The notes under the pieces are model-generated. The model was not told the DNA's origin. It was given only the letters and a program-made list of their open reading frames with translations, and did not search any database. A stretch of 64,000 nt of DNA from an uncultured Candidatus Saccharibacteria bacterium (lineage in GTDB: Bacteria > Patescibacteriota > Saccharimonadia > Saccharimonadales > Saccharimonadaceae). A program made the position numbers and the translations under genes. Each line of letters starts with the position of its first letter. Positions within the stretch are counted from its first letter, which is position 1. Positions 23,734 through 57,255 of this stretch are shown here, in pieces. The stretch is from positions 5,962 to 69,961 of the forward strand of contig CAYSAK010000003.1 in NCBI GenBank assembly GCA_964429055.1, written 5' to 3'.

Positions 23734-23847
23734 AACAAAAAAATATCTTCACGGAGGCTGCGTCCGGCCGTACGAAAGCCACGGGCGGCCGGCGCTCGTC
23801 CTCCGATGGACGCGCTCCGGAGGCCTCCTTTGAAGATATTATTTGTT
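23734..23847. repeat. GC-rich palindromic element, intergenic copy (114 nt)
   Basis: Arms AACAAAAAAATATCTTCA / TGAAGATATTATTTGTT. Core GCGTCCGGCCG...GCCACGGGCGGCCGGCGCTCGTCCTC...CGCGCTCCGGAGG. Shares 19 identical nt with the trmD copy and 13 with the uvrC copy. Lies between the convergent 932-aa gene and tsf. Confidence 0.85.
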
Positions 23848-31224: not shown

Positions 31225-32571
31225 CTACTTTAGCATATTTTTTCTTTTCAGTAAAGAATGATACGTGATGGCAAACCGGTGTGACTCTTCGTCGATGCGG
31301 GCGATTAAGCGTGCAACGTGTGAACCGGAAGATAATTCCAAATGGTTCCATTCTCGGGGCGCGTCCAAAACCCCTGTCGCCACAGGGGTTTTGGCGCTCG
31401 TCCTCGCCTTGCCAGGCTCCGGATCCCCTCGAAATGGAACATTTGGAATTGCTAGTTTTACACGGGCGTTATGTGAATGGTCACCGGATTTGTCGCGACC
31501 GATTACTAGTATATTGTATGGCTCGACTAATGGCAAAATGGCGTTGACTTGATTGATGCCGCCGTCTAGAATAATTAGGTCCGGGAAATCCCATTCGGTG
31601 TGTTTAAGCCGTCTTGTGATCACCTCGATCATGCTTTTGAGGTCGTCATTGGTTGAAGTGCGGATTTTGAACTTGCGGTACTCGCTGCGGGCGGCGACAC
31701 CATTGATAAATACCACCATGCTTGCCACCGTATTGGTGCCAGATTGGTGCGAAATGTCGTATCCTTCGATTCGGCGCGGTGGTTTTTCTAGCCCGAGCAT
31801 TTTTTGTAAGTCAGATAAGGCCTGATCTGAAGAGATATCTAGAAACTCTTTGTCGGAAAAGACGATTTTCTTCTTGAGCTCTTTCAAACCAAACAATTGG
31901 TTACGGGCTTCGGCTGCTAGTTCATAATTCCCTTTGGAGGCCTCATCATACATGGTTTTTTCAAGCTCTTTTAAGAGTTTTTCGCGATCACCTTCTAAGT
32001 ATCTAATGAGTTTTCTTAAGTTTCTTTTGTAATCTTTAGGAGTGCATTTTCCGACTTCAATTCCTGGCGTGAGATTTAGGTCGGTATTTAAGGTCTTTTT
32101 GCCAGTGTATGGCTTATCATAATACGGAAAGATTCGCCGAAGGGTTCGGAGAGCCTTTTCGACCACCAATTTGCCATAAAATGGCCCAACATAGACTGCT
32201 TTATCATCCATTGGTGTGCGTGTGAAAGAAATATACGGCACTTCATCTTGCATCGAAATTCGGACATATGACACGGTTTTATCGTCGCGAAGCAGAATAT
32301 TCCACTTTGGCATGTAGCGTTTGATCATTTCGGATTCTAAAAACAATGCGTCCATTTCGGTATCGACGACAATCCAGTCGGTGTCATAGATTTCTGCTAC
32401 CAAGGCTTCAGTTTTGGTGTCTTTATGAGATTTTTGGAAGTATTGGCGTACCCGGTTTTTAAGAACCGCCGCTTTGCCTACATAGATAATCTCCCCGGTT
32501 TTGTTTTTATGAAAATAAACTCCCGGTGAGACCGGAAGTTTATTTAGTTTTTGTCTTAACCTCTCGTCCAT
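31225..32571 (-). CDS. uvrC: Excinuclease ABC subunit C, short form without C-terminal (HhH)2, carrying a 39-codon palindromic-element insert
   Basis: 448 aa. GIY-YIG (GVYFHKNKTGEIIYVGKA...NRV..Y), a UVR-like helix pair, the endonuclease domain (GYDISH...ILDGG), and it ends at EESHRFAITYH. Confidence 0.9.
   Translation of the reverse strand: MDERLRQKLNKLPVSPGVYFHKNKTGEIIYVGKAAVLKNRVRQYFQKSHKDTKTEALVAEIYDTDWIVVDTEMDALFLESEMIKRYMPKWNILLRDDKTVSYVRISMQDEVPYISFTRTPMDDKAVYVGPFYGKLVVEKALRTLRRIFPYYDKPYTGKKTLNTDLNLTPGIEVGKCTPKDYKRNLRKLIRYLEGDREKLLKELEKTMYDEASKGNYELAAEARNQLFGLKELKKKIVFSDKEFLDISSDQALSDLQKMLGLEKPPRRIEGYDISHQSGTNTVASMVVFINGVAARSEYRKFKIRTSTNDDLKSMIEVITRRLKHTEWDFPDLIILDGGINQVNAILPLVEPYNILVIGRDKSGDHSHNARVKLAIPNVPFRGDPEPGKARTSAKTPVATGVLDAPREWNHLELSSGSHVARLIARIDEESHRFAITYHSLLKRKNMLK
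31334..31450. repeat. GC-rich palindromic element, in-frame copy in uvrC (117 nt)
   Basis: Arms AATTCCAAATGGTTCCATTCTCGGGG / CCCCTCGAAATGGAACATTTGGAATT. Perfect inner hairpin CCAAAACCCCT-GTCGCCAC-AGGGGTTTTGG, followed by GCGCTCGTCCTC. Confidence 0.85.
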
Positions 32572-52090: not shown

Positions 52091-54151
52091 TTAATTCAAA
52101 GTGGTTAATTGTTGATATTTGGCGATGCCGGCCATTAATTCCTTATATTCTACCATATTTTCTGGATTTTGCAAGAAATCTTCGACGTCCATCTGGGCGC
52201 GGGCGATGAGTTTGGTATCTGAGAGAGTGGCGATACGAAGATCCAGGGCGCCGTGTTGTAAGGAGCCATAGATTTCCCCTGGACCACGGAGTTTTAAGTC
52301 TACTTCGGCGAGGTAGAAGCCGTCGCTAGACTTTTCGAGCTCACGAAGACGGCGAGACGGCGGAATGTCGCCAGAGGTGATTAAGAAGCAGTAGGCCTTC
52401 GAAGCGCCACGTCCTACTCTACCGCGCAGTTGGTGAAGCTGGGCCAGGCCGTATGATTCGGCATTTTCGATGACCATTAAAGTGGCATTTGGCACATCGA
52501 CACCGACCTCTACTACGGTGGTAGAAACTAAAATGTCAATTTCGCCGTTAGCAAACTTCTCCATTACGGCATCTTTTTCAGCTGGTTTCATTTTGCCATG
52601 TAAAAACTCGATGGTCTTATCTGGAAATGCTTCGCGAAGCTTGTTAGTGCGAGTTCTGACTGAGGTTGCCTCCGAGATTGGGCCTTTTAGACCATCTTCG
52701 ATGGCCTTACAAATCCAATAAATCTGCTGGCCGTGCATTTTGGTGCCTTTACCTTTGATGTCTGGTTTTTCGGCGAGAATTTCTCGCATCTTTGGATAGA
52801 GTTTTTCGCGCATCTCAACCTCTTCTAGAATTTTGGTTTCAACTGGCTGGCGCCCGGCTGGAAGTTCATCTAGAATTGAGACATCGAGATCGCCAAAAAC
52901 AGTGAGCTGCAGAGAGCGCGGAATTGGCGTGGCGGTCATTGAAAGAAGATGTGGCGCTAAACCGTGCGGTGATTTCAGAACTAGTTTTTGCCTCTGTTCT
53001 ACACCAAAACGATGCTGCTCATCGATGATGGTGAGGGTGAGATTATGAAACTCGGTGTCATCGGTAAGTAAAGCGTGCGTGCCAATAGTGAGATTGATTT
53101 CACCTGATGCAATCTGTTTTTTTAGTGCGGGTTTTTGCTTGGTTGCCCCGATTAACAGAGCGGTTTTAACGCCAAAAGGCTCTAATAATCTTGACAAACT
53201 CTCAAAATGTTGTGTAGCTAAAATAGCGGTAGGGGCGAGTAAAGCCACTTGGCCACCTGACAAAATCGTTTCGTAAGTTGCGAGTGCTGCGACCATGGTT
53301 TTGCCTGAGCCGACATCTCCCTGTAATAAGCGGTTCATTGGCACCTTTTTTTCCATGTTTTGGAAAATTTCCCAGGTGGCTCTTCTCTGCGCGTTGGTTA
53401 GTTTAAATGGCAAGCTTGCAACAAATGCACGGATTTTCTCGGCATCAAATGGCACTGAAATGGATTTTAGTTTCTCATTTTCACGGCGGTTGAGCTTGGC
53501 GGCCAAGATTAGCTCAAATAACTCTTCATAAGCGAGATATTGCCTGGACACTTCAATATCTTTTGAAGAATTAGGAAAATGCGCTCTAAAGAGCATCTCG
53601 CGCCTGGTACCTGGTTTGACGGTCGGTAGTAAATCCGGTATTTCGGCAAATCTTTCCCTTGCGCCATTAAAAAACCGCTTAAAATCGTGAGATTTGAGAC
53701 CGCCATGCGCAACATAAATTGGTGTTAGGCCCGAGGTCGGATCAATATCAGAAACGAGTGCAGCCGAAGGTGAAATAATGCTCCAGCGACCGTTCTTTAG
53801 TTCATAATTCCCTGTAAAATAATACTCTTTTTCTGGCGAAAATTGACGGGCTCGGTAACTTTGGTTGAACCAAACTACTTTGACGCCACCGGTTTCGTCA
53901 CGTATGATTCCTTCGGTGACGGTGAGATTGCGACGCCGAGCTCGCCGAGTGGTTATAGAGTCAATTTTTCCTTTAATTACGACTTTACCAGGGCGGATTT
54001 CGTTAATTGAGGTTGGTGCAGCATAGGTTTCGTAGTCTCTTGGCAGAGTGTAGAAAAAATCCCGCATTGTTTTAATGCCAGCTTTTTTTAACACTTCCGC
54101 CGTCTTCGGCCCCACCCCTTTGATATTTTCGACCGAATCAAATAAATTCAT
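52091..54151 (-). CDS. recG: ATP-dependent DNA helicase RecG
   Basis: Wedge/OB domain, Walker A GDVGSGKT, DEQHRFG, QLRGRVGRG. The start at ATG 54151 (MNLFDSV) gives an ATGA overlap with the trmD stop. The track start at 54178 would overlap trmD by 31 nt. Confidence 0.95.
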   Translation of the reverse strand: MNLFDSVENIKGVGPKTAEVLKKAGIKTMRDFFYTLPRDYETYAAPTSINEIRPGKVVIKGKIDSITTRRARRRNLTVTEGIIRDETGGVKVVWFNQSYRARQFSPEKEYYFTGNYELKNGRWSIISPSAALVSDIDPTSGLTPIYVAHGGLKSHDFKRFFNGARERFAEIPDLLPTVKPGTRREMLFRAHFPNSSKDIEVSRQYLAYEELFELILAAKLNRRENEKLKSISVPFDAEKIRAFVASLPFKLTNAQRRATWEIFQNMEKKVPMNRLLQGDVGSGKTMVAALATYETILSGGQVALLAPTAILATQHFESLSRLLEPFGVKTALLIGATKQKPALKKQIASGEINLTIGTHALLTDDTEFHNLTLTIIDEQHRFGVEQRQKLVLKSPHGLAPHLLSMTATPIPRSLQLTVFGDLDVSILDELPAGRQPVETKILEEVEMREKLYPKMREILAEKPDIKGKGTKMHGQQIYWICKAIEDGLKGPISEATSVRTRTNKLREAFPDKTIEFLHGKMKPAEKDAVMEKFANGEIDILVSTTVVEVGVDVPNATLMVIENAESYGLAQLHQLRGRVGRGASKAYCFLITSGDIPPSRRLRELEKSSDGFYLAEVDLKLRGPGEIYGSLQHGALDLRIATLSDTKLIARAQMDVEDFLQNPENMVEYKELMAGIAKYQQLTTLN

Positions 54152-54888
54152 GCTTTCCCCGAATGTTCTTCGCGCCATTTAGCGATTTCGCCGTGGTTGC
54201 CAGAAAGCAAGACTTCTGGTACTTTCATACCGCGGAAATCTTCTGGTCTGGTGTATTGTGGATATTCCAAATTATCGCCATCGGAAAATGATTCAATTTC
54301 GGCTGAAGTCTCGCCACCGAGTACTCCGGGGATGAGCCTTACCACTGAGTCAATAATAATTAGTGCTGGAAGTTCCCCGCCGGTTAAGATGTATTTTCCT
54401 AGCGAAACCTTGTAATCTACCAGAGACAAAATTCTCTCGTCATAGCCTTCGTAATGTGGACATAGAATGATGTAATGGGAGTTCGCACTCAGTTCGGGGC
54501 CGCGTCCGGCCGGCCTGTCGCCACGGGCGGCCGGCGCTAAATCTCGCGCTGCCGCGCTCCGAAATGCCCCGAACCCGAGTGCAAACTCCCTTGCCAGGCT
54601 CTGGTTCCAGATTTCGCCTACAGGAGTTGGGATAATGACTTTGGCGGATGGATCTTTGGCTTTGACAGATTCAATGGCGTTGAAAACTGGTTCGCAGCGA
54701 AGAAGCATGCCATCGCCACCACCGTATGGTGTATCGTCTACTGAGCGGTGTGGACCTAGGCCAAATTCGCGTAAATTCACAAAATCAAACTCCGCGAGAC
54801 CTTTTCTCAAGGCTTTTTCCATCATTGACGACTGGAGATATGGTTCAATCGCCTCCCTAAACAGTGTGATGATTGTGAATTTAATCAT
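54148..54888 (-). CDS. trmD: tRNA (guanine37-N1)-methyltransferase TrmD carrying a 38-codon palindromic-element insert
   Basis: MIKFTIITLFREAIEPYL..., DDTPYGGG.GM, CPHYEGYDERI, GGELPALIIIDSVVRLIPGVLG. The upstream 25 codons of the track ORF (to 54963) cover a terminator hairpin and the -10 box and are rejected. Confidence 0.93.
   Translation of the reverse strand: MIKFTIITLFREAIEPYLQSSMMEKALRKGLAEFDFVNLREFGLGPHRSVDDTPYGGGDGMLLRCEPVFNAIESVKAKDPSAKVIIPTPVGEIWNQSLAREFALGFGAFRSAAARDLAPAARGDRPAGRGPELSANSHYIILCPHYEGYDERILSLVDYKVSLGKYILTGGELPALIIIDSVVRLIPGVLGGETSAEIESFSDGDNLEYPQYTRPEDFRGMKVPEVLLSGNHGEIAKWREEHSGKA
54477..54590. repeat. GC-rich palindromic element, in-frame copy in trmD (114 nt)
   Basis: Arms GGGAGTTCGCACTCAGTTCGGGGC / GCCCCGAACCCGAGTGCAAACTCCC. 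Core GCGTCCGGCCGGCCTGTCGCCACGGGCGGCCGGCGCT...CGCGCTCCGAAAT. Confidence 0.88.
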
Positions 54889-54895
54889 AAGATAT

Positions 54896-54904
54896 ATTAT
54901 ACCA
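54896..54904 (-). promoter_or_regulatory. Extended -10 promoter (TGgTATAAT) 7 nt upstream of the trmD ATG (leaderless)
   Basis: The minus strand reads TTTTGTGGTATAAT-atatctt-ATGATTAAA. No SD. Confidence 0.5.
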
Positions 54905-54905
54905 C

Positions 54906-54931
54906 AAAAGAACCGGTCTTGCGACCGGTTC
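54906..54931 (-). terminator. Rho-independent terminator ending the candidate sRNA upstream of trmD
   Basis: On the minus strand GAACCGGTC-gcaa-GACCGGTTC is followed by TTTT. Confidence 0.65.
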
Positions 54932-55053
54932 CGCGCTGATGCGCGCCCACCCTTGGGGCACATTGGTTTGTTTTAATCCGCTGTTTTTGTTTTAATGTAA
55001 GTCTCCACACTCCACTAATTAATCAGTGGAACCCCTGTGAAGCGTACCAGCTT
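54906..55053 (-). ncRNA. Candidate ~150-nt structured small RNA or leader (unknown family)
   Basis: Bounded by a TTGACA-N17-TATGCT promoter (55060-55088) and a strong terminator. Contains hairpins CCACT-gattaatt-AGTGG, GCCC-caagggt-GGGC and CGCGC-atca-GCGCG. It has no SRP, tmRNA, 6S or RNase P signature motifs that I can recognise. Confidence 0.25.

Positions 55054-55899: not shown

Positions 55900-57255
<1,356 letters not shown>

Follow-up and report, generated by a model that had tools for sequence, protein, structure and literature searches.

The trmD gene of an uncultured Candidatus Saccharibacteria bacterium, contained in a 64,000-nucleotide stretch of contig CAYSAK010000003.1 (the window, to which coordinates without a locus label refer), carries a GC-rich palindromic block at positions 54477..54590. 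We estimate a probability of roughly 75% that this block belongs to a family of selfish, non-autonomous repeats that form hairpins, are carried by Saccharibacteria of gut and rumen, insert in a replication-linked manner and have locally templated outer arms. The family, which consists of small GC-rich hairpin-forming DNA repeats in Nanosyncoccus-like lineages, is previously undescribed. An initial annotation, made from the letters of the window, had described the block as a 114-nt in-frame insert.

The GC content of the block is 0.73-0.82, compared with a window average of 0.42. Its full hairpin, comprising an outer stem and a core, has a minimum free energy of -72.7 kcal/mol on the + strand and -78.4 kcal/mol on the - strand (z about -7). 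No stop codon interrupts the block in the frame of trmD, which lies on the minus strand (54148..54888) and encodes 246 amino acids with the insert. The palindrome, the open frame and the peptide of the initial annotation were all recovered, but the inserted DNA comprises only 102 nt (54478..54579), whereas positions 54580-54590 are native. This boundary was established by alignment with an empty trmD site that is present in two Logan contigs (L081 and L082; L and P numbers are labels of loci and proteins in our comparison sets) with about 92% nucleotide identity over trmD. The empty allele reads GGGAGTTTGCA, then AAAGACGCC, then CATTAC, where AAAGACGCC represents 9 nt encoding Lys-Asp-Ala, and the flanks GGGAGTTTGCA and CATTAC are identical between the window and the empty allele. 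With 102 nt in place of 9 nt, the window allele is longer by 93 nt (31 codons). That TrmD is continuous at this site elsewhere, as had been proposed from the E. coli protein, was borne out by solved TrmD structures, which align in two segments that directly adjoin each other in the known protein and leave query residues 100-129 unaligned. An AlphaFold2 model of TrmD with the insert has low confidence overall (mean predicted local distance difference test score 52.6), and the insert is its least confident part.

A dispersed family with a shared core

A covariance model was built from an alignment of the four window copies and copies from relatives. When applied to the window with filters off, this model finds exactly four copies, all on the + strand and with E values of 7e-19 to 4e-11, and the fifth-best match has E = 2.4. 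These are the same four blocks that had been recognized initially. The core of the trmD copy (54492..54574, +) scores 98.3 bits with E 7e-19. The intergenic copy (23734..23847, +; core 23750-23832) fills the spacer between a convergent 932-amino acid open reading frame (ORF) and tsf. The uvrC copy (31334..31450, +; core 31351-31434) resides in a gene on the - strand and adds ~30 amino acids relative to empty UvrC proteins of 417-421 amino acids. The fourth copy (56868..56984, +; core 56886-56967) belongs to a divergent subfamily and is located in the linker region of obg, which is encoded on the + strand. The 19-mer GCCACGGGCGGCCGGCGCT, previously noted as shared between the intergenic and trmD copies, matches exactly at 23778 and 54520, with 0.00 matches expected by chance. 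In each of the four blocks, the fold consists of a long outer stem around a junction from which two inner hairpins emerge, and comparison with dinucleotide shuffles gives z-scores of -5.2 to -7.8. Apart from these blocks, the window has a single GC island, a Pro/Ala-rich coding stretch at 62.8-63.4 kb (62798-63423), which encodes a low-complexity protein region and is unrelated to the element family.

The initial annotation had called for a covariance-model scan of related genomes, which revealed a dispersed family. One comparison set comprised 80 loci (1.39 Mb) from related Saccharibacteria genomes that were fetched through TrmD. Goat, sheep, yak or buffalo gut is the source of many of the genomes, which were assembled from metagenomes and in several cases are labelled Candidatus Nanosyncoccus; human oral and freshwater lineages are also included. 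A second set of 80 loci was obtained by scanning metagenome contigs for the core pattern. The model finds 45 further matches in the first set (49 with the four of the window) and 52 in the second, and the family is seen in many independent assemblies from ENA, NCBI, JGI and Logan. Zero copies were found by the model in the oral Nanosynbacter-like loci (L047-L054). GC-island scanning of related loci was too noisy to delimit copies, and the covariance model was used instead.

The copies share a GC-rich module of about 80 nt with typical ends CTCGGGG...CCCCTCG. Within a long site-specific stem, a conserved core of ~83 nt forms a three-way junction, which is closed by a short stem (P1) and carries a long hairpin (P2) with the loop GTCGYYAC and a short hairpin (P3). 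The P2 loop of the trmD copy is GTCGCCAC. Conserved unpaired bases include CGCGTC before P2, the P2 loop itself, GCGCT after P2 and CTCCG before the closing stem. In the model-fitted alignment, 84.5% of cells pair, compared with 65% in shuffles and about 40% in a partner-slide control, and double-sided changes occur in 22 of the 24 stem pairs. This type of conservation, with covarying stems and fixed unpaired bases, is confined to the core. Many cores are bounded by a 4-nt direct repeat, CTCG...CTCG, that makes a 2x2 mismatch at the base of P1. The repeat is the same in all copies and therefore may be part of the element.

Matches to Rfam 15, which includes ribozymes and introns, were at chance level both at gathering thresholds and at E values up to 10, and blastn searches of phage and viral collections yielded no match to the element. 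One pattern match in the viral collections was rejected as a chance match in a GC-rich contig. When a 39-residue insert peptide was compared with 1.8 billion representative proteins, only eight matches were obtained, all weak and short, and the comparison is thus uninformative. Full-text literature searches likewise recovered no description of such a family in Saccharibacteria or other Patescibacteria, in agreement with the suspicion voiced initially.

About 70 of the ~95 copies reside within long ORFs of housekeeping genes, and the frame is open across the element in each case. Both orientations and at least three reading frames are represented among these genic copies, and the different frames yield distinct peptides (...FRSAAAR..., ...PVATG... 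and ...SRAAALRN...; an insert-derived example is SAAARDLAPAAR). Because all genic copies are open and in frame, they are expected to be translated, and each would form an extra loop of ~30 amino acids in a permissive loop or linker of an essential protein. About 20 different housekeeping genes are affected. In addition to TrmD, UvrC and Obg, the hosts identified by Pfam include UvrD/PcrA, TatD, LeuRS (two sites), Val/IleRS, LepA, Der, PriA, DnaX, LigA, TsaD, a class-V aminotransferase, a P-type ATPase, FemAB and rRNA/tRNA methyltransferases, with the Pfam domains resuming on both sides of the insert. A first set of non-genic copies was checked, and these are intergenic, mostly right after a stop codon, with none splitting a gene.

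Alignment of TrmD, UvrC and Obg orthologues, another of the proposed checks, reveals that the inserts are lineage-specific and polymorphic, with empty alleles in close relatives. TrmD homologues with 75-97% identity carry 0 to 59 extra residues at the insert loop, and the inserts there include the same element, in the same or the reverse orientation, and other subfamilies. The identical TrmD protein, with its insert, was found on 13 contigs. Nucleotide identity to the empty allele of L081 is 0.95-0.98 in the more distant parts of trmD and falls to 0.72-0.90 within ~100 nt of the insert (54400-54700). This raised divergence fits the arrival of the filled allele via homologous recombination, but the pattern is only suggestive because comparable dips in identity occur elsewhere, in recG.

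UvrC alleles may be empty (417-421 amino acids), filled (448 amino acids), filled in the other orientation, nested or reduced to the arms. Relative to the filled uvrC allele of L206 (1300-1647), in which the core is bounded by a CGAGG direct repeat, the arms-only allele of L204 (1300-1572) lacks a 75-nt core and retains one copy of this repeat. Such a difference fits either slippage deletion or precise excision. Since the two genomes share only about 80% identity, the event is not a recent one. Obg has two insertion sites, a beta-turn in its N-domain and the linker before the C-terminal domain, the latter being occupied in the window. The N-domain turn reads VKRDGEVIADL in 30 loci, and ten loci carry inserts or arms-only hairpins at this place.

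Several side observations were made on these host genes. The start of trmD is assigned to the ATG at 54888 because homologues begin with MIKF, and an extension of the ORF to 54963 is not conserved among them. The region 54889-54963 (- strand) is a GC-rich leader 5' of trmD that carries a terminator-like hairpin, GAACCGGTCGCAAGACCGGTTCTTTT, followed by TATAAT. It yields only sub-threshold matches to Rfam. ORF callers that read through this leader produce a spurious 25-amino acid N-terminal extension (MCPKGG...) in many database TrmD entries. Typical UvrC proteins comprise about 600 amino acids and include a C-terminal helix-hairpin-helix region. UvrC of the window (31225-32571) and its relatives are short (417-448 amino acids), with GIY-YIG, UVR and RNase H-like endonuclease domains, and end soon after an RDEAHRFAI-type motif without the helix-hairpin-helix region. 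Nested insertions are present in the P2 hairpin loop of several copies (L010:14362-14480, L026:10314-10429, L027:8645-8718 and the UvrC protein P0164), and several of them hold the small motif TCCCAAGGGGCG. The 25-amino acid nested insert of P0164 splits the PVATG loop peptide.

Apparently templated arms and skew-linked orientation

The outer arms differ between sites and yet pair, as had been pointed out for the window copies. However, this pattern was originally read as conservation of structure rather than of arm sequence, and selection of that kind is not its main cause, given that one arm is native and the other is its templated inverted copy. In the window trmD copy, the outer 11 nt of one arm (54580..54590, - strand) are the native Arg-Glu-Phe-Ala codons, (A)GG GAG TTT GCA, which are unchanged in the empty allele. 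The outer part of the opposite arm, TGCGAACTCC (54478..54488, - strand), is an inverted copy of this native GGAGTTTGCA, and encodes Ala-Asn-Ser in place of the native Lys-Asp-Ala. The AREFA residues are kept in TrmD homologues that have no insert. In trmD relatives, the derived arm follows the lineage-specific native codons (RMFA/ANI in L028, RGFA/ANP in L012). Similarly, native [IL]ADL codons make one arm at the Obg N-domain site, and native KLVA or TSEAL codons do so in TatD. Apparently, the element acquires its outer stem through inverted copying of the adjacent gene sequence.

Within one population, copies in different genes that have near-identical cores carry fully unrelated arms of 14-22 nt (two copies in L099, and others in L154, L123, L114 and L144). 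These arms start directly outside the shared unit CTCGGGGG...CCCCCCTTCG. Homology between copies stops at CTCGGGG/CCCCTTCG, and the paired sequence beyond is site-specific. Arms that are unrelated on near-identical cores have not been carried along with the element, and slow compensatory divergence is ruled out as the source of their differences. Orthologous P-type ATPase copies may represent a before/after pair for arm formation. The core in L152 (119-200) has no pairing arms and shows no target duplication, whereas the copy in L144 (2970-3052) has arms: at the equivalent place, 17 nt repeat the downstream flank in inverted form. There is a 5-nt length difference between the aligned segments of the two loci. 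This comparison indicates that the flank was overwritten after insertion. Taken with the unrelated arms on near-identical cores, the arm-less copy implies that arms arise at or after insertion.

A second, unrelated in-frame hairpin family, which is absent from the window, encodes the peptide ...IEQTRxKSEExSRDEYETxISAQSRLxDEDF... and occurs in the Obg linker of L003 (about 12803, - strand), in the TrmD loop of L027 (10306-10500), and also in L009, L024, L007 and L022. It occupies the same Obg-linker and TrmD hot spots, and its site-specific arms also use the native flank (for example, the ELKQV codons of Obg). This use of native flank by a second family points to a host process rather than an element-specific enzyme.

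Template switching at quasipalindromes is an established mechanism (PMC7202029) that has been discussed for coding palindromes (PMC6649704). In the process we envisage, the module would insert by a single-stranded, replication-linked route. The inserted hairpin would then induce the nascent strand to fold back on itself, so that its own flank serves as the template, as in template switching at a quasipalindrome. Such self-templated copying would lengthen the palindrome outwards and keep the two arms complementary. At an occupied site, the core could later be inverted, replaced or lost, with loss leaving arms-only hairpins, and nested insertions could be added.

The orientation of the copies was compared with strand asymmetry, using GC skew as a proxy for replication direction. 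The skew was measured at third codon positions and averaged over plus- and minus-strand genes, which cancels the effects of transcription. Among loci of at least 8 kb, orientation matches the sign of this strand-balanced skew in 55 of 66 copies. Whole-locus GC skew with elements masked agrees with orientation in 50 of 63 loci (Mann-Whitney p = 7e-7), and all copies point in the same direction in 14 of the 16 loci that hold more than one. All four window copies are on the + strand, whereas their host genes are on the -, - and + strands. At the trmD site, copies flip relative to trmD in step with the sign of the skew (8/9 loci). In contrast, orientation agrees with host-gene direction for just 12 of 48 copies and with the majority coding strand for 34 of 66, and both were rejected as determinants.

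The model strand of the element lies on the G-rich strand, which by the usual convention corresponds to the leading-strand sequence and hence to the lagging-strand template. An orientation bias of this kind is a hallmark of replication-coupled elements that transpose as a specific single strand, such as IS608 (PMC5027513). That orientation tracks GC skew and not the direction of the host gene points to a replication-coupled, single-strand mechanism.

Evaluation of alternative explanations

Several observations weigh against a replication-linked selfish element with locally templated arms. GC skew only stands in for replication direction. One pair of copies (L005 and L010), at two sites that flank a single gene, has similar arms, which means that joint transfer of arms and core can occur on occasion. 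Neither a target motif nor a clear target duplication could be defined, and no transposase, recombinase or reverse transcriptase linked to the family was found in our searches. A tblastn search of 2.09 Mb of partial genomes with IS200 TnpA (Y1) and RAYT sequences yielded nothing, a result that is weak either way, and the ORFs adjoining intergenic copies are ordinary and non-recurrent. Finally, several subfamilies recur in both orientations at a few codons (the trmD loop, the two Obg sites, UvrC and TatD), which is not easily explained by random insertion followed by selection. Possible reasons for this reuse are that selection favours permissive sites, that copies exchange their cores, or that new insertions are targeted to leftover hairpins.

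The last of these options is part of a bolder proposal, which we regard as doubtful. It holds that the family represents a new mode of mobility in which a small three-way-junction module moves in single-stranded form at the replication fork, inverted flank duplication in place of a direct target duplication is its signature, arms-only hairpins are its preferred landing pads, and a structure-specific nuclease or recombinase of Saccharibacteria so far unrecognised carries out the reaction. If arms-only hairpins were indeed preferred as landing pads, this would explain the reuse of codons by different subfamilies.

The element might instead be a structured RNA or single-stranded DNA structure that is useful to the host and is kept by selection at each locus, with possible roles as a terminator, a signal for mRNA stability or RNase processing, or a protein-binding site. 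The covarying stems and fixed loop and junction bases described above favour such a role, as do the intergenic copies right after stop codons. In addition, strong conservation of the unpaired bases is seen between species in which synonymous sites have reached saturation, an observation that also counts against selfish spread. Third codon positions of trmD are 42-50% identical among the window, L028, L022 and L012, whereas element cores are 75-88% identical, and 18 of the 20 differences between the window and L028 elements fall in paired bases, with 2 in unpaired bases. These same differences are spread 6/6/8 over codon positions 1/2/3, so protein-level selection is not the cause. One strand folds better than the other in 41 of 46 copies, but this asymmetry is perhaps just a property of the shared core and was set aside as evidence.

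Host utility is nevertheless unlikely in view of the presence/absence differences between close relatives and the placement of copies in loops or linkers of unrelated essential genes. The copies also occur in either orientation relative to transcription and follow the GC skew instead. A simple scan calls no terminator at the intergenic copy, and the Rfam searches gave no match. Core conservation may mean that resident copies are under selection at the nucleic acid level. We prefer the reading that copies are young everywhere through repeated re-filling, conversion or exchange of sites, because filled and empty alleles are polymorphic among close relatives.

It is quite improbable that the outer hairpins came first, either as products of local template switching or as remnants of previous copies, and that cores then integrated into the hairpin tips with the arms serving as landing pads. 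Arms-only alleles do exist in UvrC (P0160/L204), the Obg N-domain (L019) and TrmD (P0083), the same sites hold different subfamilies in both orientations, and the window trmD arm has a second, outer CTCGG/CTGAG layer that resembles the end of an older element. However, the core in L152 has no arms, most empty trmD, Obg and UvrC alleles of relatives have no hairpin, and a deletion between the CGAGG direct repeats would account for the arms-only uvrC allele just as well.

The initial annotation had also raised the possibility that the block is removed from the mRNA as a mini-intron or skipped by the ribosome through translational bypass, and thus is never present in the protein. A very stable hairpin within an essential gene might invite this explanation, and the GC-rich bypass elements of Magnusiomyces mitochondria, as cited in PMC6649704, would provide a precedent. 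We consider it very improbable because all ~70 genic copies, in two orientations and several frames, are free of stop codons and keep the frame, a constraint that removal or bypass would lift; no ribozyme or intron family in Rfam was matched. An assembly or chimera artefact, or an ordinary lineage-specific insertion conserved at the protein level, has nothing but the unusual base composition in its favour and is hardly conceivable given the 13 contigs with the same TrmD protein, the many independent assemblies that contain the family, the even spread of substitutions over codon positions and the different frames used in different genes.

Relation to known repeats and significance

Rickettsia palindromic elements (RPEs) were proposed initially as the closest analogy, and they are indeed the nearest known system in behaviour. 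RPEs are palindromic repeats that often lie in frame within unrelated essential genes, where they are translated, and that are also found between genes (PMC10969869). Like the family described here, they form hairpins, measure only about 100-150 bp, lack their own transposase and occur in the reduced genome of a host-dependent bacterium. Both are placed in frame within unrelated protein-coding genes in a manner compatible with translation, as is true of the ~70 genic copies, and the colonisation of genes for UvrD, LeuRS, LepA, PriA, DnaX, LigA, TsaD and Der fits this comparison.

In contrast to this family, in which only the ~80-nt core is shared, an RPE family shares sequence over its whole length and a conserved peptide. 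No conserved peptide is evident among copies that use at least three frames, are read on both strands and have arms unrelated between sites. The Saccharibacteria family is also GC-rich in a 42% GC genome, exhibits a strand bias along GC skew, and resides in a different phylum. Since host phylum and base composition differ, we consider the family an analogue in behaviour and not a member. It is distinct from RPEs in its core-only sharing, locally templated arms, use of several frames and an orientation tied to strand asymmetry.

The IS200/IS605-type elements and their REP/BIME and PATE relatives also have orientations tied to the replication fork or the lagging-strand template (PMC5027513, PMC3333891, PMC6006769). 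A comparable bias is present in the 55 of 66 copies noted above, to the extent that GC skew reports on replication. Further shared features are hairpins recognised by structure and the lack of classical terminal inverted repeats and, apparently, of target duplications. However, REPs are extragenic and only 20-40 nt long, and IS200/IS605 systems have a Y1/HUH transposase and a target tetranucleotide, neither of which was found here (by a weak tblastn test in the case of the enzyme), and make no inverted copies of the flank.

Products of quasipalindrome template switching and the coding palindromes of Nematomorpha mitochondria resemble the element in being site-specific inverted repeats in coding sequence with both arms translated. 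Their arms are kept complementary through conversion or template switching and not by function (PMC6649704, PMC7202029). They have no shared mobile core, whereas in the present family the palindrome extends outwards from an inserted conserved module.

Classical miniature inverted-repeat transposable elements (Correia, ERIC, Nezha and others) are likewise small, non-autonomous and structured, and are occasionally intragenic and in frame (PMC10969869). In contrast, these elements have conserved terminal inverted repeats that match a parent insertion sequence, along with target-site duplications. We found no conserved terminal repeats, no evident target duplication and no parent element, in keeping with the distinction drawn originally. 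GC clusters and double-hairpin elements are GC-rich palindromes of fungal mitochondria, and together with the 'byp' elements they share with this family the invasion of AT-richer genomes, coding regions included, by GC-rich palindromic modules. They are organellar, however, and byp elements are bypassed in translation according to the work cited in PMC6649704, whereas the copies described here stay in frame.

The combination of a conserved core, templated arms and skew-linked orientation makes this family a natural system for the study of hairpin-induced template switching and single-strand-linked mobility. It also illustrates that compensatory-looking stem covariation can appear without selection on structure. 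Patchy inserts inflate and diversify proteins, which affects orthologue alignment, phylogenomics and structure prediction, and they are usable as strain-level markers. Saccharibacteria and other bacteria of the Candidate Phyla Radiation have some of the smallest genomes known, and these are regarded as carrying little selfish DNA. Our findings suggest that the tiny genomes of Saccharibacteria are still open to colonisation by selfish DNA and that, because almost no intergenic space is available, such elements persist inside essential proteins, including TrmD, Obg, UvrC, aminoacyl-tRNA synthetases, DnaX, LigA and PriA.

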